Shown here piece after piece: positions 4,527 to 32,432 of a stretch of DNA of 64,000 bases (positions are counted from its first letter, which is position 1; each line of letters opens with the position of its first letter). Source of the DNA: a virus; the IMG/VR virus record IMGVR_UViG_3300043497_000005; one strand, given 5' to 3'. The notes under the pieces are model-generated. The model searched no databases. It saw only the letters and a list, made by a program, of their open reading frames with translations, and had not been told where the DNA came from. The position numbers were made by a program, and so were the translations under genes.

Positions 4527-7500
4527 GTGCCCTTCTTCTTCAGAGCGCTGAGCGATTTCGCATAATCAGTGTCGCGCTCCTTGCCGCGCACGCCCATGCC
4601 CTCCCACAGGATTTTCTCCGGCCACCACCATGTCGCCTGCGCACCCGCTGGCGTTAGCTCGATGCCGTGACGCTCGCGCATCTTGTCAATCGCCCGGTTG
4701 AACACGCTTGTGATCCACTTGCGCTGGTTGCCGTTCTTCGGTTGCTCCACCATCATGCCCTTGGCGGTCAGTGTAAGCCGCTCCGATGCCAGCACCAGTT
4801 CGCTCTTCTCGTATTTCTCCTTGGTGCCAGCCTTCTTCTGCGCCTTCTGATGCGCGATGAAGTCGCGCTCGTGCTGGGTGTAGATTTCCTCGGCCCGCTC
4901 GATCACGCCCTTCCTCGTGCGCGGCACCGGCAGGCCCGCATGATCCAGTGCACCCTCAACACGCTCGATCTGCTTGGTCATGTCCTCGACGTCGGTCGAG
5001 CCGATCCCGGTGTTGGTGATGCGGCCCCATGCGCGCATGAACCACAGGTCCATCGTGATCGGCGAGAAATTGCCGTTCAGGTTCTGATAGAAGCCCTGCC
5101 CGATCTTCGGACCCAGCATCGCCGAGCCGTACACGATATCGTCCTTCAGGGTCGCACCGGGCTCGACGCCGGTCTTCAATGCGAGATCGCGCGCGGTCAT
5201 CTTGGTGTCGAAGAACTCACGCAGCTTGGCAATGCCGCCTTCCTCGATGGCTTCGTTGACCTTGCGCAGGTTCTCGACAATGGACGCCTTCTTGACCTCG
5301 ATGTCGGTGGGAAAGCGGCCATGCTTCAAGAAATGCCGATAGGCCTGATCCGCCAGCGCCACGTTGCGATCAACCGTCTCGCCCTGCGATGTCACCGCCA
5401 GCGCCACCGTGTAGATGAACTTCTGGTCCTTGTCCTTCGAGATGCCGGGATAGATATCCTCGGCGATCTCCATCGCCTCTTTCACCGTGTCGTCGTACCA
5501 GTGCTCGCCCGATGCGCCGCCGATCAGGCCCTCGCGCAATTCCATTGCGATCACGTTGGCCAGATACTCATCGGTCTCCTCGGTGTGGTTCTCCTCGGTG
5601 ATCGAGCTTAGCCCGAGGTCGCGCTTCAGTATCTTGCCAGCGCGCTCGTTCAACACCTTGGCAGCCTCGGTCACCAGCACTGAGTTGGGCTTGATGTCCG
5701 GGTACTCCGACAGGATCGCCGTCGGCGTTAGCTCGAACCCTTCTTGCTCATAAGGTGGGAGCCAGTGATTGCGTACGTCTTGCCAGATGGCTTCAGCATC
5801 TTGAACCGGGGATCGCTCAATGACTTTCTGGTATATGCCTCGCGCGCGGTCTCGCTGTTCGCGGTCCGATCCTTTGCCGTCGTATCCGATGAACTCGGCT
5901 TTGCCGAACTGGTAATAGACCGGGTTGTCCTTGCCATAGGCCTGCGCTCCCTTGTCGACCTTGTCTAGCTCGTCGCCGTCGGTGTCGACCACATAGACCG
6001 TCGCACCGCCCTGCTTCGGCACAATGGTATGGTTTGAGATGCCAGCCTTCAACAGCTTCTTGTGGATGCTCTCCAGCGTGCCCTTGGCCTCGAACTGGAT
6101 CAAGGCATCGGTCCCCTTGTCCTGTTGCTCGAACACCAGCACCGCCTTCTGGTCTGCGATGTAGCCCTTCATCACGGTGGCCAGCACGATGCGGTCCCAG
6201 TTGGACTCCGCGCGCGACATCAGCGAGTTTTCTGCACCATCGGTCCATGCCCCGATGATGTTGACCTCCTTGGCATCCCGCACGCCGACCTTGTCGTTGA
6301 TGTCGAGCGAGCACGCGCGCAGCCTTGTTTGCTGCCGTGAATTCAACTCCCTGATCGCGCCCTTGAAATCCAGCCCGCTCTTGACGCTCGGCGATACAAA
6401 GCCGGTGGTCTTCTCCATGTTCTCCGGCATCGAAACGAACTGCCCGCCACCCTGTCCGCCGGGATCGCGCGCGTGCTTCGTCGGGTCCCACTGGATCAGG
6501 CGGTCAGCTAACTTGCTCGCCAAACGGTCCAACAAGGCCGCGTCGAAAGGGGCTCGGCTGTCTTTCGCTACCTCCCCTTCCATGCCGCGCGCCTTCGGTG
6601 GCGCTAGCTGCTTCATCGGCGCAGGTCCCGCAAGCTCAGCCTCAAGCGCTTCCTCGTCCAGCGCTTCCTGTGCAGCGATGGCTTCCTCGATGCCAGCCTC
6701 GATGCCGGGATAGGTGCCGTCCTCGATCAACTGGTTGACGCGGCCCTTCACCAGCGCCTCGAACGGCACCAGACCAGTGGAGGCATCAACCGCTGCAGTG
6801 TCGGCCTTCACCTTGGCGATGTCGGCCTTGTCCTTGGCGCTCATCTGCCACAACGGATTCCAGTTGTAGAAAATATCCTCATCGAACGAGCCAAGCGCCG
6901 ACATCTGGATCGCAATGTCGAGCTTCTCCAGCGTCGGCGTCAGCCGCAATTCCTGATCGCTCTTGATGCGGTCGTAGTAATTGGTCAGATCGCTCTCGCC
7001 TGTCGAGTTCAGACCTGCCGGTGCCTGTCCAAGGAAACGCGTCGCCGGGATGTCAGCCGCACCCGCAGCAATGTGCATGTACATCTGCATGATCTCGGGC
7101 ATGCCGGTGAAGTCGACGCCGATGCGCTGCCACTCCTCCTCGCCATCGAGCACCACCGCGTTGATCACGCTCTTGGCCACGTTGGCTTCCGAGAAGCGCT
7201 TGATCAGCCGGTTGGTGCCGTCGGTGGTCGAGAAGATTTCGGTCAGCCCCGGTATCTTGACCACGTCGAACTTGGCTTCACTGATCATCGCAGCGATGCT
7301 CTGTTGCACGGTGCCTGCGGCTGCAACCGCGTCGTGCACCATCTGCAGCACCGGATCGCCCCAACCGAAATTCGCCATCGGGTCCGGTGGATCGAGACCG
7401 ATCAGGCGGATCATGCGGCTCGGATGAATCTTCACGTTGCCGAGCTTTCCGCTCTCGTCGTTCAACGTGTAGAACTCGGGCTGGCCGTAGTACGGCGACG

Positions 7501-7939: not shown

Positions 7940-7987
7940 AGGCGCATCCTTTCTGATATCAACCTGTCGCCATTTCAGGATGGCATT

Positions 7988-8060
7988 GGCAAGGTATGGC
8001 ACGGCGCGTTCAGGCAGCGTTAGGCACGGACGGGCACGGTCTGGCTGGCTTGGCTGGCTA
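7988..8060 (+). ncRNA. Orphan GGY-NN pentamer unit (candidate stand-alone guide RNA)
   Basis: GGCAA GGTAT GGCAC GGCGC GTTCA GGCAG CGTTA GGCAC GGACG GGCAC GGTCT GGCTG...; same grammar as the 28-29.5 kb array; intergenic; followed by a hairpin and T-tract. Confidence 0.7.
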
Positions 8061-8062
8061 CG

Positions 8063-8095
8063 AAAGGGGCTCCCTCACGGGGGCCTCTTTCATTT
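8063..8095 (+). terminator. Intrinsic terminator-like hairpin (possibly bidirectional)
   Basis: AAAGGGGCTCCC-TCAC-GGGGGCCTCTTT followed by CATTT. Confidence 0.6.
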
Positions 8096-25482: not shown

Positions 25483-25529
25483 AGGCCGGTCACCTGAAGC
25501 CGCCCCCGGCCCTTGGTGACCGGCCTTTT
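25483..25529. terminator. Hairpin between convergent genes
   Basis: AGGCCGGTCACC...GGTGACCGGCCT followed by TTT. Confidence 0.55.
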
Positions 25530-26065
25530 CATTTCTGCGCAGTGAACAGCGGCGTATGCCGCCACGCCAGTTGCGGGTTGAGCCACGCGCATTGAAAACT
25601 CCACAACGCGGCTGCATCACTCTCGTCGGTGGTGGTCGCGGGCCATCCCATTTGCTGGCAGCGCTCCAGCGTCAGCGGCTTGGCGATCTTCGCTTTCATA
25701 TTCTGGCCGATGAAGTGTGCTCGCACTTGGCTTACTGATGCTTGGCGAAGATCGTAGCGGTCGTAGCACCACTCCTCCAGATGCTCGGCGAGGCCGAACA
25801 GCAACCGCGTGGTGCTAATATTGGTCTTGCCGCCCATGAACGATGGCACCGCCGGGCTCTCGTACACGATCAGGTCAGGGCTCATGCGATGGTGCTTCAC
25901 CATCGCCTCAAGCCACTTCCTGAATTCACGATAGGTCTCGGCGTGCGATGCGCCGCCCTTGCTGAACCGCACGTGCCCACATAGCGGGATCGAGCCGGGC
26001 ACGCCAGCGGCCCAGCCTGTTGTCGTAGCTAAATCGAGCGCGAGCACGCGACCAGTAAAGGTCAC
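25529..26065 (-). CDS. RuvC-like Holliday junction resolvase
   Basis: LALDLATTTGWA, IVYESP, DESDAAA catalytic pattern. Confidence 0.8.
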   Translation of the reverse strand: MTFTGRVLALDLATTTGWAAGVPGSIPLCGHVRFSKGGASHAETYREFRKWLEAMVKHHRMSPDLIVYESPAVPSFMGGKTNISTTRLLFGLAEHLEEWCYDRYDLRQASVSQVRAHFIGQNMKAKIAKPLTLERCQQMGWPATTTDESDAAALWSFQCAWLNPQLAWRHTPLFTAQK

Positions 26066-26247
26066 CGCCCGCGCCTGCTGCGTTTTTTGACCGTAACAAC
26101 CACCCGCTTCGCCTTGCCGGTCTTCGGCTTGACGTTGACGGTACGCGTTGCCTTGTCGATCTTTGTCTTGTTTTTCTCCACGCGCTTTTCTCGCAGTGCG
26201 CGAAGCTCCATCTCTTTGGGTCCTACTTTATCGTGTGACATCATCAT
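26062..26247 (-). CDS. Small basic protein
   Basis: AAGGAGCAA RBS; K/R-rich. Confidence 0.55.
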   Translation of the reverse strand: MMMSHDKVGPKEMELRALREKRVEKNKTKIDKATRTVNVKPKTGKAKRVVVTVKKRSRRGR

Positions 26248-26461
26248 TGCTCCTTGGTGGATGCAGGTCAGGCCGCAGCCTCTCGCGGTCGATAGAGAAC
26301 AGCCTCTCGATCTTTATAACATGATGCGATGGAATACGATGCCAGCGCGTCAGTGTCGGCAGCGCGAGCTTGAGCGCCTTGGCCAAGCGATAGCGTGAGC
26401 CAGCCGCCGCCACCGCCAGCCGCAGACCCTCATCCCGAATTCGTTTTTTGCTCGTTGCCAT
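26228..26461 (-). CDS. Cro/YdaS-like HTH regulator
   Basis: AGSRYRLAKAL...RWHRIPSHHVIKIE...LRPDL; divergent from the RAMP-like gene. Confidence 0.75.
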   Translation of the reverse strand: MATSKKRIRDEGLRLAVAAAGSRYRLAKALKLALPTLTRWHRIPSHHVIKIERLFSIDRERLRPDLHPPRSNDDVTR

Positions 26462-26606
26462 GCGCGGGTAGCCTACAGGGAGACGACATCGGGATCACAC
26501 ACCCCCCGCAATTTATTTTTCACTGTCCTCTTGCATATAGTTGTTATTTATCTTACTGGGGGTTTGACCGTCAGCGTGGTGCTGGCCGGGCAAGGAGCAA
26601 ACTAAA

Positions 26607-27431
26607 ATGGCTGTGAAGAAAAAAGACGACACCGATCAGGCGATCATGATCAAGAAGATCGAGCCTGACATTGTACGTTGCGCGATCCTCGGTGCTTCGC
26701 CGATGATCATGCATCGGTTCGCGTTCAAGGCGTGGCAAGAATTGCTGTTGCCTGCCGCCAAGAAGAACGCGGCAGCGAAGGCGGAGAATCTAAAGCACGA
26801 TCCGCTCAACGAATTTCGTGAGTGCTGCTACCGCAACCGCTCGGAAGAAGAACCGACGGCGATCCACTATCCGGCTGGCGCGTTCTCGAAGGCACTGGCA
26901 GCGGCAGCGCTCGACCTGCCCGGAGCAACCAAGGCGCAAATCCTGCGGCTTGTCGGCGTCGTCAGCACACAGATCAATATCTATGGCACGCCCACGCTGG
27001 GCATGGATATGGTGCGATCCAGTGACATGGCCAGAACACCGGACGTGCGCACGCGCGCATATCTGCCGGAATGGTGCTGCACGGTGGACATCAGCTACAT
27101 CAAGTCGCTGATCGGGAAAGAGCAGATCATCAACCTGCTTGATGCTGCCGGTCTCATCGTCGGCATCGGCGACTACCGCCCGCAGAAGGGCGGACAGTAC
27201 GGTCGCTTCGAGGTAGTGAGCCCGGACAACAAGGACTTCGTGCGTATCATGAAGCAACAGGCGCGCATAGCGCAGGAAGCTGCGCTGGAGACCCCTACGT
27301 TCTTCAACGAGGATTCCGCTGAGCTATATCAGTGGTTCAATGAGGAGACCGAGCGTCGTGAGAAAACCGTGCCCTCGTCCAAGGGTAACGGCAAACCGAA
27401 GCCGCAGCCGACACAGGTGCCGGTGCAGTAA
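26607..27431 (+). CDS. RAMP/Cas7-like protein (putative guide-RNA-binding effector)
   Basis: N-terminal strand ILGASPMIMH and C-terminal Gly-rich loop GLIVGIGDYRPQKGGQYGRFEV resemble RAMP (Csm3/Cas7) hallmarks; lies upstream of the repeat array. Confidence 0.7.
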   Translation: MAVKKKDDTDQAIMIKKIEPDIVRCAILGASPMIMHRFAFKAWQELLLPAAKKNAAAKAENLKHDPLNEFRECCYRNRSEEEPTAIHYPAGAFSKALAAAALDLPGATKAQILRLVGVVSTQINIYGTPTLGMDMVRSSDMARTPDVRTRAYLPEWCCTVDISYIKSLIGKEQIINLLDAAGLIVGIGDYRPQKGGQYGRFEVVSPDNKDFVRIMKQQARIAQEAALETPTFFNEDSAELYQWFNEETERREKTVPSSKGNGKPKPQPTQVPVQ

Positions 27432-27439
27432 ACGAAAGC

Positions 27440-27474
27440 GGCGGCGATCAATTATGGTCGCCGCCATTTTTTTT
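27440..27474 (+). terminator. Intrinsic terminator between the RAMP-like gene and its partner
   Basis: GGCGGCGATCA-ATTA-TGGTCGCCGCC, then A and T8. Confidence 0.65.
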
Positions 27475-27489
27475 GAAAGGAGCGAGACA

Positions 27490-28044
27490 GTGAGCAGTAG
27501 ATCAGACAAACGCCAAAGAGAACTCGATGCCGCGATCCGCGCATGCGAGGATGAAACAGGCCATGCGATACCGAAGGTGGTGGTGGCGGCAGCGCAGGAC
27601 CCAACGCACCCAAGCTATGAGGTGCTCACCCTCGAATTTAATTGGAACGTTCAAGAGGCTGCACAAGCACACTGGGAAGATCGAGCGCGCGAGCTTATCC
27701 GCGAGGTGCGTGTGATGGTGGTTTACGGTGACGCCAAGATCGCGACGCCGGTTTACGTCAGCGATCCGCGCGTTCCCGAGTCGTCGTTTATCCGCACAGT
27801 AAGAATCGCGCGAAGCGGACCAACCAAAAGGGCGGTGCTGCAGGCGGAGTGCGACCGGATCGCTTCGGCGATCAACCGCGCGATAGGTCTGGCTGTTGTG
27901 TTCGATCTAGAACAGCGTTTCGAAAACGCGCTTGCCGAGATCATGATGGCGGCCAACGAGCTAGGCAGCCGCGACGACGATGGCGACGACGATGACGGTG
28001 GCAGCGCATCACCGCGCGGGCCGGAGCCATCACCGGCACCGTGA
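27490..28044 (+). CDS. Partner protein of the RAMP-like gene
   Basis: GTG start with AAGGAG RBS; PKVVVAAAQDPTHP...FNWN...AAQAHW..RARELI; ends 8 nt before the array. Confidence 0.7.
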   Translation: MSSRSDKRQRELDAAIRACEDETGHAIPKVVVAAAQDPTHPSYEVLTLEFNWNVQEAAQAHWEDRARELIREVRVMVVYGDAKIATPVYVSDPRVPESSFIRTVRIARSGPTKRAVLQAECDRIASAINRAIGLAVVFDLEQRFENALAEIMMAANELGSRDDDGDDDDGGSASPRGPEPSPAP

Positions 28045-28052
28045 GCTTGCTT

Positions 28053-29570
28053 GGCATGGCAGGCACGGTGAGGTGAGGTACGTTGAGGCGCGGCTGTGCG
28101 CGGTCTGGTTGGGCTCGGTTAGGTCAGGCAGGCAAGGCCCGGCGAGTTGTTGTGAGTTATGATATGGCAAGTCGCGGCGTGGCAGGCGCGGTTAGGCCGG
28201 GCGAGGTTAGGTGCGTCGCGGCAGGGTATGGCGGGCCGAGGCCGGGCTGGGCAGGACTGGTGAGGTCGGGCCGGGATTGGTCAGGCAGGGCGCGGCGAGG
28301 CGCGGCGTGTTGTGTCCGATTAGGTTTGGGCAAGGCAGGCATGGTGTGGCGCGTTTGGCGATGGCGAGTTGAGGCTAGTCCGGTTGAGACGAGGCATGTC
28401 GCGGCGAGGCAGGCGAGGTAGTCTGGCCACGTCTAGCTCGGTCACGGCGAGGCTTGGCAGGCGCGGTGTGTCAGGTCAGGTCATGTCATGGCCGGGTAGG
28501 TCAAGGCGCGGCCCGGTAAGTCATGGCGTGGCAGGCAAGGCATGGTGTGATCGTGTGGGGTGAGATCAGGTGCGACGAGGCAAGGCAGGCGCGGTTAGGC
28601 GGCGAGGGGCACGGCTGGGCACGGCGAGGCAAGGTATGGCAGGCATGGCTCGGTTTCGGCGGCGCTCGGTGTTGCACGGTCAGGCCGGGCGTGGCGTGGC
28701 ATGGCAGGCACGTTATGGCTGGGCAAGGTAGGTCATTGGTGTGGCAGGCGACGTCTGGCGCGGGCGGCTAGTTGTGGTCGGGTCAGGCAAGGCATGGCAG
28801 GCGAGGTACGGCAAGGTGTGTTCGTGCGAGGCAAGGTCGGGCAGGCTGGGCAAGGCGCGTCGGCGCTTGGTGAGGCAGTGTGCGGCGTGGCTGGGCAAGG
28901 TTAGGCAGGCGAGGTGCGGCGAGGCCGGATATGGCACGGTCCGGCTTGGTGGGGTTTGGCGCGGCAGGCGCGGCAAGGCGAGCCCGGTCAGGCCGGGGTC
29001 GGCTCTGGCGAGGCACGGCATGGCGAGGCAGGCTGGGCGGGCTTCGGTTTGGCAAGGCATGGCTGGTTGCGGTTAGCTCTGTTGCGGCGTGACGTGGCAG
29101 GCTGGGCTTGGCTTGACGCGGTCGGGTTCGTTGCGGTGGGGCAGGTTGTGGTCAGGCGTGGCAGGCGAGGCGTGTTTTGGTCCGGCAGGATAAGGCTAGG
29201 TCTGGCAAGGCAGGCTGGGCTTGGTATGGCGCAGCGAGGCGGGGCACGATGGGGCAAGGCACGGCAGGCGCGGACTGGCTCAGTATGGCTAGGCGCGGCT
29301 GGGTAAGGCGCAGCGAGGCAGGCAAGTTAGGGTCTGTCGCGGCGAGGCAAGGACGGCCCGGGCGTGGCGAGGATTGGCACGGCAGGCAAGGTTGGGCGTG
29401 GCGAGGTCTGGCATGTAGCGGCTAGGTGAGCCACGGCAGGCTAGGCACGCACAGGTGACGTGAGGCATGGCGAGACGAGGATGGGTTGGGTGACGCGAGG
29501 CTAGGTCAGGCAGGCTGGGCTCGGTAGGGTCGTGCATGTTCGGGTTGGTCACGTCGCGGAGTGGCAGGCA
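28053..29570 (+). ncRNA. GGY-NN pentamer array, 25 units delimited by GGCA(GG); candidate guide-RNA array
   Basis: Strict 5-nt periodicity; 26 GGCAGG delimiters; 21 of 25 units have length 5n+4; terminator follows. Confidence 0.85.
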
Positions 29571-29575
29571 AAAGG

Positions 29576-29604
29576 AAACCGGGAGAATTACTCTCCCGGT
29601 TTTT
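29576..29604 (+). terminator. Terminator closing the array
   Basis: AAACCGGGAGA-ATTAC-TCTCCCGGTTTTT; overlaps the end of the convergent ORF. Confidence 0.75.
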
Positions 29605-29773
29605 CCTTGCTGGTTAGTTCGTGGTATCGAATGCACCACGTGTCGATATCGCTCTGCGTGTAGCCGCGCGAGTTCATCTCTTTCCAGAATTCCTCTCGCG
29701 TCATCCGTTTGTCGCCGTACTGACCGAGCAGGTACGCCAGCGATTCGTATTTGGTGAGCGGCTTGGTCTTCAT
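29588..29773 (-). CDS. Hypothetical protein (gapped near-match to array unit 24)
   Basis: MKTKPLTKYESLAY...YTQSDIDTWCIRYH...; ATGA overlap. Confidence 0.65.
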   Translation of the reverse strand: MKTKPLTKYESLAYLLGQYGDKRMTREEFWKEMNSRGYTQSDIDTWCIRYHELTSKEKPGE

Positions 29774-30420
29774 GGCTGCGGCCTGTGCTCCCGGCAGAAC
29801 CACCGACCCGGCTTGCCCTTCAACAGACTGACACCGTAACCCCAGCTAGCGTCGCGACAGCACACCTCGCAGAAATTGGAATCGGGCCAACCGGGGCCGA
29901 TCAGGTAGCGCTTGGTTTTCACGCCGCCACCGATGACGTCATTGACCGGCACCACGCGGCACTCAGTGCGGTTGCGCTCGTTGGTGCGCGTGATCGGCCA
30001 CATCTCCTCGCCGGTTTCCCAGAACCACTTCTTCAGCGCCTGCATGTCCATCACGTAGACGTTGAGGCCAACCTCGCTCTTCGGTGTCGAGAACGCATAG
30101 ATCAGGATGTCGGCGACCGAGGTGTACATCCAGCCTTGTCGCTCGTAGCCCGGGACCGTACAGGTCCACGTCTCCAGCGCGAAGGCGGTGTATCCCGTCG
30201 TCCCGTCGGTGGGCCAGTGCACGATCTTCTCCTCGACAGTCTTCTGCCCGCCCGGCGTTTCTACCAGCGTGTCGACGTAGCGCTGGGTTGGGTCGTTGTT
30301 GTCGAGAAAGCGATACCTGTCTGGAAAATATCGGTCATAGAAAAATGGCTTCAGGATCATGTCGCGCTGCCTGACCTGCCAAGCATTCTTGATGTCGAAA
30401 GTGTTGTCGATGTCGCTCAT
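29770..30420 (-). CDS. Putative PD-(D/E)xK nuclease-like protein with C-terminal Cys motif
   Basis: YVDTLV...VEEK, ADILIY; CEVC...WFCREH. Confidence 0.55.
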   Translation of the reverse strand: MSDIDNTFDIKNAWQVRQRDMILKPFFYDRYFPDRYRFLDNNDPTQRYVDTLVETPGGQKTVEEKIVHWPTDGTTGYTAFALETWTCTVPGYERQGWMYTSVADILIYAFSTPKSEVGLNVYVMDMQALKKWFWETGEEMWPITRTNERNRTECRVVPVNDVIGGGVKTKRYLIGPGWPDSNFCEVCCRDASWGYGVSLLKGKPGRWFCREHRPQP

Positions 30421-31421
30421 CCTGCAGCCGCCTCTGTCCCGGCTTCAACGAACAGGTTGGTGAAGTCAGAACGCTCCTCACGCTGGTTGGCCTCGCCATA
30501 TGGCGGATAAGAACCGGCGCGGATGATCTCGTAGGATTTTTCCGGCTTCTCCGAGTGCTTACCACGCGGTGCCTCGAAGTGCGTCGGGATGCTGGCTGCC
30601 GCCGGACGTGTGGTGGTTTCACCGCGCGTGGCGAATATCATGTGCTCGGTGCTGTTGCGATAGTAGCTGCCGAGCCCGAACGGCGGCGGCTTGATCCACG
30701 TGATGACGGTGCGGTGCTGAAAGCCCCAATGCTCGACCAGCTTGCACGCCTCGCTCATGAAGTTGTTGGTCGTCCAGCAATACATCTGACAGCCTTCTTC
30801 TTCATCGGCCCACGCCGCAACGTCAAGCTCACGCAGTTGTTCGATGGTCTGCATCGCATAGCCCGGCTTTGCGCGTGCAGCGATGGACAACCAATCGTAA
30901 TCCCAAGCCGGATCGATGACGATAGTGCGGAATTTTCCGACGCGGGGCACGAGGTTCAGGATACGATATTCATCGGCCTGTACCCTCGTGGTGCGCAGAA
31001 TACTCGACACCTCGTTGCGCTGAAGCGTCGGGCAGATCGTGCCATCCTTCACCAACCGCTTGAAAGTAACTTCATCGAGCCGGGCGATCTTGTCGATGGT
31101 GTTGTAGTCGGGTGGAAGCATCTTGGCCAAATGGGAGTCAATGACTCCCATTTGGGAATCGCACCACGTCGCAATCCGCATGAACATGCTGGCAACACGA
31201 CGGTGGAATTTCAGATCACTATCGAGCACATTGATCCACTGCCCGTGCTCCAGACCAGCCTTAGCCCTATGCAGATCGCGGCCAAGCTCGATGAACCCAG
31301 TGACGGCGGTTTGCCTAATAACATCCCATTGATCGTTGAGCCGCTTCGCCCACTGTCGTCTCGTCAGTTGTAATTCGCCCGGCTTGATGACAGTCAATTC
31401 CCGGCTTGGCTTCTTAGGCAT
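30417..31421 (-). CDS. MT-A70-family adenine methyltransferase with N-terminal DNA-binding-like domain
   Basis: IVIDPAW, YCWTTN, WGF..TVITWIK, G.Y.RNSTEH, HSEKPE. Confidence 0.85.
   Translation of the reverse strand: MPKKPSRELTVIKPGELQLTRRQWAKRLNDQWDVIRQTAVTGFIELGRDLHRAKAGLEHGQWINVLDSDLKFHRRVASMFMRIATWCDSQMGVIDSHLAKMLPPDYNTIDKIARLDEVTFKRLVKDGTICPTLQRNEVSSILRTTRVQADEYRILNLVPRVGKFRTIVIDPAWDYDWLSIAARAKPGYAMQTIEQLRELDVAAWADEEEGCQMYCWTTNNFMSEACKLVEHWGFQHRTVITWIKPPPFGLGSYYRNSTEHMIFATRGETTTRPAAASIPTHFEAPRGKHSEKPEKSYEIIRAGSYPPYGEANQREERSDFTNLFVEAGTEAAAG
31127..31155. promoter_or_regulatory. 29-bp perfect palindrome, copy 2 (inside the methylase gene)
   Basis: CCAAATGGGAGTCA-A-TGACTCCCATTTGG. Confidence 0.65.
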
Positions 31422-31899
31422 GCTGTTTCCTTACTGCGAGCGGGTTGGTGTACATGCGGAAGTGCGTCGGGCAGTACGACGACATGCTGCCGTTATAGTC
31501 GTAGCCGCGCGGCTTGCCGCAGACCTTCTGCAGCTTCCACTTGCCGCTGCGCTCCGGCAGGATGGCCTTGCAGCCGTTCGACCCGTTGTCGAGATACTCA
31601 ACGCCGGGGGTCTTGCTGATGGCGTCGACCTCGGTGACGGTCAGGGGAGTTCGGGGTGGCATCTTGGTCACGTTGTTGCTCCTTGGTGGTGGTGGCTTGG
31701 GTGGTGGCTTGAAGGTCATCAGCGAGGTTGTGGTCCTCCTCTTGAATGCCTCTCTAGGCAGGCGATGCTTGCGCCCGGCAATGGCATTGCGGGAGACGGC
31801 GTAGCCAGCCTGTTGCAGGCCATTGGCCACGTACGACAACGAACCGCCCTCATCCCATAGACGGACGAGGAGGGCGTCGGCCTCGTCGGTCCATATCAT
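31414..31899 (-). CDS. gcrA: GcrA-family regulator
   Basis: MIWTDE...LVRLWDEG.S...VSRNAIAGRKHRL plus C-terminal CKAIL...CG...YCPTH. Confidence 0.85.
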   Translation of the reverse strand: MIWTDEADALLVRLWDEGGSLSYVANGLQQAGYAVSRNAIAGRKHRLPREAFKRRTTTSLMTFKPPPKPPPPRSNNVTKMPPRTPLTVTEVDAISKTPGVEYLDNGSNGCKAILPERSGKWKLQKVCGKPRGYDYNGSMSSYCPTHFRMYTNPLAVRKQHA

Positions 31900-32132
31900 G
31901 GCTTGCGCTTTCGCTTGCTTGAGAAGATGTCCGGGCGAACCTGCTCCGGTGTCATCTCGATTAGCGGGGCGATCTCCATCACGTGGTGCGCTGGCACACG
32001 ATTCCACGCCGCCACGTTCTGGTGCGTTACGCCGAGGTGTCGTGCGATCACCGCAGCGAACCCCGGCTTGGAGAAGATCAGCCGCATCACGTGGTCGCGC
32101 TCCTTGTCACGCCTCGGGCTGGACCGCTTCAT
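31896..32132 (-). CDS. Second Cro/YdaS-like HTH regulator
   Basis: IARHLGVTHQNVAAWNRVPAHHV...VRPDIF. Confidence 0.75.
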   Translation of the reverse strand: MKRSSPRRDKERDHVMRLIFSKPGFAAVIARHLGVTHQNVAAWNRVPAHHVMEIAPLIEMTPEQVRPDIFSSKRKRKP

Positions 32133-32432
32133 CACCTCTCCTCGCATAAAGCGTCGGGCCTCGACACTGGTCGATTCCATTTGTTTACTCCACATTGTAC
32201 GAGAACAACATCATTTGAATCTATCCCATTGATTTCTGGATTTCTACCCTCTAAAGACAGAGTCGGTCTCCCGGGGGAAAGCCAATACCCCTTGTGCCCC
32301 ACCTCCGGAAGGACCGAAGGCTCCGCGTTGCTCCACCGTAAAAGGTGAACGACGCGGGGCCAACCGGGGCGGACAGAACCTAGTGTGTTTGCACTGTCCG
32401 CCCCGTTTAACGTTCTTCAAGGAGCAAGACGT

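Follow-up and report, generated by a model that had tools for sequence, protein, structure and literature searches.

The locus studied here raises the question whether a RAMP-type gene, a partner gene and a periodic array in a phage genome form an RNA-guided system outside CRISPR, and which known system they resemble. It lies at positions 26,607 to 29,604 of a 64,000-nucleotide stretch of viral DNA (IMG/VR record IMGVR_UViG_3300043497_000005), the whole of which is called the window here. The initial annotation had likened the locus to the VIPR (Viral Interference Programmable Repeat) systems of phages, and this identification was right: the fold, the homology and the linked GGYNN arrays agree with the VIPR preprints (bioRxiv 10.64898/2026.04.26.720920, 10.64898/2026.04.26.720927 and 10.64898/2026.10.15.759431). 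The window very probably holds a complete VIPR locus of a tailed soil phage, made up of vipr, vap, a staggered array of ∼27 guide RNAs (vrRNAs) and a solo vrRNA. The locus is a further example of an already described family; the category is unchanged and a known system is extended. VIPR was described only in 2026, mainly from enterobacterial and Pseudomonas phages, and the present locus would add a clean, complete example from an uncultured soil phage. The open reading frames (ORFs) of 274 and 184 residues, the array and the terminator were all found where the initial annotation had placed them. The elements of the system are as follows.

26607-27431 (+), vipr, predicted 274-residue Vipr with a minimal RAMP fold (AlphaFold2 model, Foldseek, VIA-align, AlphaFold-DB clusters, PDB entry 36pp_D)
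27440-27474 (+), terminator-like hairpin and run of 8 T between vipr and vap (terminator scan; −23.6 kcal/mol, z −4.9)
27490-28044 (+), vap, predicted 184-residue Vipr-accessory protein; homologue directly after vipr in 67 of 111 related loci
28053-29571 (+), staggered vrRNA array (segmentation, marker spacing of 5n+4, periodicity statistics)
29576-29602 (no strand assigned), hairpin and T run closing the array (−25.7 kcal/mol, z −5.7)
7978-8095 (+), solo vrRNA, with ∼13 GGYNN units (7978-8047), then GGCT steps and its own terminator hairpin (8063-8095)

Vipr and its partner protein

The vipr ORF is preceded by AAGGAG. An AlphaFold2 model of its product was built on 38 homologues (predicted local distance difference test score, pLDDT, 82.9). 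The model has a beta-alpha-beta RRM core, a long thumb beta-hairpin at residues ∼130-153 and a helix at 171-185 that leads into a glycine-rich loop at 186-201 (GIGDYRPQKGGQYGRF). The motif SPMIMH stands at residues 31-36. The loop had been described as C-terminal; it is present, but ∼70 residues follow it, and residues 205-274 were modelled as a helical extension and then a disordered basic tail. The fold comparison with Cas7 and Csm3 that had been suggested as a check bore out the RAMP/Cas7-like assignment, since both Foldseek and VIA-align returned a Cas7/Csm3/Cmr4-type RAMP fold. The top PDB matches in Foldseek were all CRISPR backbone subunits (Cmr4, Csm3, and the Cas7 proteins of types VII and I-A), with E values from 1.5e-5. 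In an exhaustive VIA-align search the highest Z score was 8.8 (Cmr-beta), and 27 of the 28 leading rows were entries of CRISPR RAMP complexes, the remaining one being human RNase P.

The closest matches were found outside CRISPR. The five best AlphaFold-DB cluster matches were A0A0F9A1L0, X1U2U4, A0A661D0E2, A0A2D6XG06 and A0A1F4YLN4, and the VIPR discovery preprint lists these same five accessions in its methods as the non-CRISPR RAMP hits that founded the family. A0A0F9A1L0 matched with an E value of 2.4e-29, template modelling (TM) scores of 0.84/0.90 and 41% identity over 251 residues, and the C-terminal extension was included in the match. The only significant sequence match in the PDB was chain 36pp_D, "SUSP1 Vipr protein" (E 0.0035 with the single sequence and 1.8e-7 with the family profile). 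By predicted fold and by homology, the product of 26607-27431 is therefore Vipr. It also matched PHROG 4652, a family of unknown function (1.9e-17), and had no match in Pfam.

In the cryo-electron microscopy structures of SUSP1, the two guanines and the pyrimidine of each unit are held by the thumb residue R138 and the G-loop residues D177, W178 and R179, and H17 is a further GGY contact (bioRxiv 10.64898/2026.04.26.720927). The profile alignment paired R150 of the present protein with R138, D189 with D177, Y190 with W178 and R191 with R179. Three of the four contact residues checked in this way are thus kept, and R150, D189 and R191 are invariant in the 38 homologues. The fourth, W178, is a tyrosine here and Trp or Tyr across the clade (W in 26 of 38 homologues, Y in 11 of 38). 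H36, which is histidine in 31 of 38 homologues, is the likely equivalent of H17, as judged only from its position on strand 1 in a region outside the HMMER alignment.

The likeness to the type II system of Escherichia phage SUSP1 (bioRxiv 10.64898/2026.04.26.720920) extends beyond these residues. Both systems have a phage-borne vipr and vap operon with GGYNN guide RNAs encoded downstream on its strand, and both Vipr proteins have the RAMP fold, the G-loop motif G-x-G-D-[WY]-R-P and the thumb arginine (PDB 36pp). Targeting with a 1-nt skip at the wobble base, the lack of cas genes and a solo or upstream vrRNA elsewhere in the genome are also common to the two. The systems differ in that sequence similarity is limited to the thumb and G-loop region. 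The SUSP1 Vipr has 202 residues, compared with 274 here, where the G-loop has a 4-residue insertion and the protein a 70-residue C-terminal extension. SUSP1 has 4 vrRNAs of ∼100 nt with a conserved pseudoknot tail, whereas the ∼27 guides of the present array are tail-less and split only by a 4-nt GGCA. The vap family also appears to be different.

With the Cas7, Csm3 and Cmr4 proteins, Vipr has the RRM core, the thumb hairpin and the glycine-rich loop in common (Z up to 8.8; Foldseek E 1.5e-5). Those proteins polymerise along a guide RNA at a fixed periodicity, and by homology Vipr would do the same. Class 1 CRISPR systems have a period of 6 nt with 5 read bases and a spacer as guide, in contrast to 5 nt, 2 read bases and a tandem-repeat guide at the present locus. 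No genes for cas1, cas2, cas5, cas6, a large subunit or an effector nuclease and no repeat-spacer array were found here. Membership of class 1 CRISPR-Cas was rejected, the RAMP fold being the sole resemblance.

The partner gene of 184 residues was present and is a conserved neighbour of vipr. Its start codon is GTG, 7 nt after an AAAGGAG ribosome-binding site. Because the homologue adjoins vipr in 67 of the 111 loci, we regard it as a conserved accessory gene, vap in the terms of the preprint. In the model of Vap (pLDDT 90.2), the N-terminal part is an alpha/beta domain and the C-terminal part a helical hairpin, and an acidic tail is disordered. Vap matched phrog_15946, a family of unknown function, and had no match in Pfam or PADLOC. 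Foldseek and VIA-align yielded nothing informative against the PDB, the structural matches being dominated by the generic helical hairpin. Its best neighbours in AlphaFold-DB and the ESM Atlas were uncharacterised viral proteins, the AlphaFold-DB list being led by A0A0F9ADW7. A role as DNA-binding protein was considered and not adopted, as the only rows in its favour were weak winged-helix matches (Foxp2, PadR-type), too little to call.

The stem of the hairpin between the two genes (27440-27474) is conserved in the closest relatives, L130 and L131, and the hairpin is a possible attenuator that sets the ratio of Vipr to Vap and array. Partial termination at this point would yield more Vipr than Vap, an excess that would make sense for a protein of which every repeat takes one copy. 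A sigma-70 scan detected no convincing promoter upstream of vipr or within vap.

Architecture of the array and of the solo guide

As first described, a 1.5-kb periodic array begins 8 nt after the partner gene and is closed by a terminator. Both features were seen: the first GGYNN unit starts at 28053, 8 nt past the vap stop codon, and the array extends to about 29570. The terminator at 29576-29602 is bidirectional and also serves a convergent gene of 71 residues. The identity of the array with itself at a lag of 5 nt was 0.494, compared with 0.315 ± 0.012 in dinucleotide shuffles (z = 15.3). Runs of at least three GGYNN units contained 130 units in the array and a mean of 3.65 (maximum 16) in the shuffles. 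The GGY-NN periodicity that had been claimed was thus recovered, but it is not uniform, since 4-nt GGCA units interrupt the 5-nt register 25-30 times.

The array was segmented by dynamic programming into five-base and four-base units. This yielded ∼271 five-base units, of which 193 are well-formed GGY plus NN and ∼29% are off the GGY consensus, and ∼30 four-base units. Twenty-five of the latter are GGCA in the fixed context GGCAGGC. This heptamer occurs on the plus strand in 25 copies in the 1.5-kb array and in 15 copies in the remaining 62.5 kb. The spacing of the GGCA steps is almost always 5n+4 (44-74 nt), so that the array is made up of ∼27 blocks with 8-14 pentamers apiece, and from one block to the next the register moves by −1. 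GG is strongly depleted among the NN dinucleotides of the array (2% compared with 9% at codon positions 1-2), which presumably protects the register.

The guides abut through the 4-nt step with no intervening ribozyme. An Rfam scan of 26000-30000 (E ≤ 1) returned no ribozyme family, and the VIPR variant in which the guides are interspersed with hammerhead ribozymes was thus not encountered. The legend of figure S18 of the discovery preprint describes "staggered vrRNA arrays", in which neighbours overlap by 1 nt and one end marks the next start. As far as this legend goes, the GGCA register step fits such arrays, in which guides abut through a −1 register step as they do here. Together with the match to A0A0F9A1L0, this may indicate the same VIPR type as A0A0F9A1L0 and the staggered arrays of that legend.

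Linkage of the array to vipr was examined in related phages. More than 640 Vipr homologues were found in metagenomes, and 307 IMG/VR stretches were confirmed. GGYNN arrays were counted among 80 fetched IMG/VR viral loci, and the vap neighbour among the 111 related loci mentioned above. GGYNN runs were found downstream of vipr on the same strand in ∼58 of the 80 loci and on the opposite strand in only one, and the proposed linkage of homologues to such arrays was thereby upheld. The GGCA step in its GGCAGGC context recurs in the arrays of relatives whose Vipr is 40-83% identical, and a few clades of relatives use GGCT or GGCC in its place. In several relatives, additional short GGYNN arrays precede vipr or separate it from vap (L004 6867-7186, L005 5646-5806, L039 5745-5897, L058 5830-5938 and L046 2695-2857). 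SUSP1 likewise has an upstream vrRNA; the present window has none at those positions. Automatic gene callers place spurious ORFs in such arrays, for example a 249-residue call in L130 (9110-9859, minus strand).

The array also varies in the soil. Low-depth variant contigs in the soil DNA runs X7 and X12 either lack array blocks (28546-28628, 28900-29012 and 28969-29154, for example) or have other GGYNN-like sequence in their place. Loose contig ends in the same runs lead into different GGYNN units (window 28546-29154). These variants suggest guide turnover between co-occurring strains.

The solo vrRNA occupies the gap between the portal gene and the rightward gene that comes next, at a distance of 20 kb from the array. 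Both strands of the window were scanned, and the only GGYNN runs outside the array are those at 7978-8047. The terminator hairpin at 8063-8095 has a folding energy of −28.5 kcal/mol. A single guide with its own terminator far from vipr is also the arrangement of the solo or orphan vrRNAs of satellites and VIPR-null phages (bioRxiv 10.64898/2026.10.15.759431). Unlike those, the solo guide here is part of a phage that keeps its own vipr and vap, and it is situated ∼110 nt from a near-match in the portal gene.

Predicted targets of the guides and codon-family switches

Guide targets were scored by the 1-nt-skip rule of the preprints: the NN pairs of consecutive units are read against the target as NNxNNx. 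A match of 80% of the NN bases is the level used for published target calls in the discovery preprint. Over the array as a whole, the NN spectrum correlates with that of codon positions 1-2 in sense orientation (r = 0.53), compared with r ≤ 0.15 in any other register. Two array guides are treated in detail.

28062-28126 (+), guide 1 (13 units), predicted to target the codons of the catalytic C-terminal motif in the RuvC-like resolvase of related phages
29439-29508 (+), guide 24 (14 units), related to the YTQxDIDxWC motif of a small early-gene family

Guide 1 matched the RuvC-like gene of L130, a phage with a Vipr 79% identical to the present one, at 23 of 26 bases, a score reached by 0 of 200 shuffles. 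For the RuvC-like genes of L002 and L131 the scores were 22/26 and 20/26. The phage's own RuvC-like gene (25593-25630, minus strand), 2.5 kb away, was matched at 19 of 26 bases (73%, p = 0.02-0.04). At every one of these sites the skipped base is the wobble position of the codon, and the target peptide is the conserved resolvase end T-D-E-S-D-A-C-A-L-W-x-Y-Q. The own copy differs from the guide by two amino-acid changes and by switches of codon family for leucine (TTG versus CTN) and serine (AGT versus TCN). Better matches to relatives than to the own gene are expected if the rivals of the phage are its relatives. Guide 1 thus comes with a natural matched target in L130 and a natural mismatched control in the own gene.

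Guide 24 matched a gene of 309 residues in L131 (3607-3647, minus strand) in frame at 21 of 28 bases, which 0 of 200 shuffles reached. The adjacent 71-residue ORF of the phage itself (29622-29662, minus strand) was matched in frame at 20 of 28 bases (71%). The two genes are homologous (66% identity over 56 residues, E 1e-27), and the real target of guide 24 is presumably a third variant of this gene family. For the solo guide, an in-frame match of 19 of 24 bases (79%; p = 0.004 in shuffles) was found in the portal gene of the phage itself (7842-7876, minus strand); this is under the 80% level. No array guide reached 80% NN anywhere in the own 64 kb, the best self-match being 73%; the discovery preprint likewise reports no self-match of at least 80% for its systems. 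A match of the guide at 29100 to the vipr gene of L130 (18/24, p = 0.015) was marginal and is not claimed as a target.

The array guides were also compared with five whole contigs of more distant relatives (G001-G005), with no score above the shuffles. In the reverse comparison, 289 unique guides of relatives scored no better against the window than shuffles, and the phage is therefore no visible target of the sampled relatives.

The skip rule was validated within the clade by a guide of the relative L004 (7068-7122), which sits in a mini-array between the L004 vipr and vap genes. This guide matched the thumb-coding codons of vipr (VRNSDI..TPD) at 20-21 of 22 bases in six relatives (L009, at 6379-6410, and L007, L008, L010, L020 and L022). 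Its own vipr gene was matched at only 16 of 22, as arginine and serine are encoded there by alternative codon families (AGA, TCT); the vipr gene of the present phage was matched at 17 of 22. Codon-family switching in amino acids with sixfold degeneracy looks like a way round a code that skips the wobble base. With Leu and Ser in the present RuvC-like gene and Arg and Ser in the L004 vipr gene, the locus shows, on the basis of these sequences, a possible route of phage escape. A word search for related terms in two of the VIPR preprints detected no mention of such a loophole.

Active-site targets, wobble alignment, anti-vipr guides and self-matches below non-self matches are published VIPR themes, which the present guide-target results repeat. 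The pattern of bioRxiv 10.64898/2026.10.15.759431, in which guides match relatives better than self and are directed against the vipr genes of relatives (here the guide of L004), is repeated as well.

Proposed mechanism, alternatives and genomic context

The mechanism put forward in the initial annotation, with one subunit per GGY, the NN presented to DNA, and blocking rather than cutting, is the published mechanism of SUSP1 (bioRxiv 10.64898/2026.04.26.720920; structures in 10.64898/2026.04.26.720927). By homology, we infer the same for the present locus because three of the four checked GGY-contact residues are kept, guide 1 obeys the 1-nt-skip rule and the operon has no recognisable nuclease. 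The operon would be transcribed rightward from the early-region intergenic space beside a divergent Cro/YdaS-like gene. By homology with SUSP1, Vipr protomers would coat each vrRNA with one protomer per GGYNN unit, the GGY bases being held by D189, Y190 and R191 of the G-loop, by R150 of the thumb and probably by H36. The NN bases would stay exposed on the coated vrRNA and read double-stranded DNA, skipping every third base, usually the wobble position of a codon, and transcription of the bound gene would be repressed. The 4-nt GGCA step breaks the 5-nt register and may so mark the end of one guide and the start of the next. For guide 1 at least, the target would be the RuvC-like resolvase gene of rival phages that are close relatives, a gene that looks essential, and within it the part for the active-site end; mismatches at codon positions 1-2 would spare the phage's own copy. 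That Vipr assembles into filaments and binds DNA, that it silences instead of cutting and that GGCA serves as a boundary are all suggested by analogy with the described systems.

Several observations weigh against the reading as a complete and active VIPR locus. Only 193 of the 271 units are well formed and many lack GG, so that some guides may be decaying. The discovery preprint confirmed only ribozyme-interspersed and single-vrRNA architectures by small-RNA sequencing; staggered arrays, of which the present one is a large example with ∼27 guides in 1.5 kb, are proposed in the literature and still a prediction. A target that is statistically clear and scores at least 80% was obtained for guide 1 alone; guide 24 and the solo guide gave near-matches of 71-79%. 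Exact-pattern scans of IMG/VR and the JGI metagenomes detected no perfect target for guide 1, guide 12 (28908) or guide 24. In IMG/VR, the full pattern of guide 1, the guide at 28908 and the first 10 units of guide 24 each gave 0 hits, and the last 9 units of guide 1 were found only in L002. Neither the complete guide 1 pattern nor the opening 10 units of guide 24 had a hit in the JGI metagenomes. The exact scans say little about the absence of targets because they allow no mismatch. In all, no target was found for ∼20 guides. No RNA run was listed for the array; one soil metatranscriptome run had only two 151-nt contigs, both over vipr and possibly due to DNA carry-over. Finally, the modelled fold of Vap has no functional match, which leaves room for a cutting or other effector role.

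The last point bears on the alternative that the locus is a VIPR locus that destroys its target, or has another activity dependent on vap, instead of simply blocking transcription. Vap is without a fold match, and the preprint reports types III-V with enzymatic vap genes, a nuclease or helicase in some VIPR types. However, Pfam, PHROG, PADLOC and the fold search detected no nuclease or helicase motif or family in Vap, which is small (184 residues) and composed of an alpha/beta domain and a helical hairpin, and for the types with a nuclease the preprint describes enrichment in the defence islands of hosts, not in phages. We therefore consider this alternative unlikely. A somewhat smaller chance is given to the idea that the locus partly regulates the phage's own genes, with near-cognate guides that dampen or time the portal/late operon, the 71-residue gene and the RuvC-like gene. 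The solo guide, guide 24 and guide 1 would then act in cis-proximity as weak self-directed repressors that time early and late expression, besides attacking rivals. It is true that the best matches of these three guides within the window are all at in-frame sites in own genes (19/24, 20/28 and 19/26). All three are under the published 80% level, however, and silencing by SUSP1 is reported to be abolished when NN pairing is disturbed. Guide 1 is better on the genes of relatives than on the own gene, and the whole contigs of five relatives had no general excess of self near-matches (3 of 45 guides with p ≤ 0.05, compared with 2.25 expected). Such regulation is accordingly improbable.

Least credible of all is a reading of the array as something other than a functional guide array, be it G-rich simple-sequence or G-quadruplex-prone DNA, a decaying relic or a Gly/Arg-rich coding region beside a RAMP gene. 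ORFs of 82-130 residues do cross the array, gene callers place ORFs in the arrays of relatives (the 249-residue call in L130 among them) and ∼29% of the units depart from GGY. Against this, a reading frame is impossible to keep with a 5-nt period and 4-nt steps, and the linkage to vipr and vap is strand-specific across dozens of diverged phages. The GGY is constant where the NN is variable, a guide matches the gene of a rival by the published rule, and a terminator closes the array. We hold this explanation to be very improbable, and the locus is best read as a VIPR locus with a functional guide array.

The window as a whole is that of a tailed phage, with genes for a portal, large terminase, tape measure, tail proteins, endolysin, RecT, an Exo VIII-like PDDEXK nuclease and a helicase. 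A megablast of 25 kb of the window against GenBank phages gave no match; the phage was found in many soil metagenomes. The VIPR operon is located in the early region, near a RuvC-like resolvase gene (25529-26065, minus strand), an MT-A70 methylase gene and a GcrA homologue. The initial annotation had stated that no cas1/cas2, nuclease or CRISPR repeat was nearby. The cas and CRISPR part stood, as the Pfam, PHROG, PADLOC and TRF results contained no cas genes or CRISPR repeats within about ±8 kb of the locus; the nuclease part did not, as the RuvC-like resolvase lies 0.5 kb upstream. This resolvase is an ordinary phage gene on the other strand. No PADLOC defence family was detected near the locus. 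Among the genes examined, which were selected ORFs only, there was no integrase and no CI-like repressor.

Two Cro/YdaS-type helix-turn-helix genes (26228-26461 and 31896-32195, both on the minus strand) each head a leftward gene block, and the VIPR operon diverges from the former. At 30417-32007 on the minus strand, the gene for the MT-A70 adenine methylase, with an N-terminal DUF3102, overlaps that of the GcrA homologue (Pfam 4.5e-11) by 8 nt. The two form a possible phage pair of methylation writer and reader, and the GcrA homologue suggests an alphaproteobacterial host.

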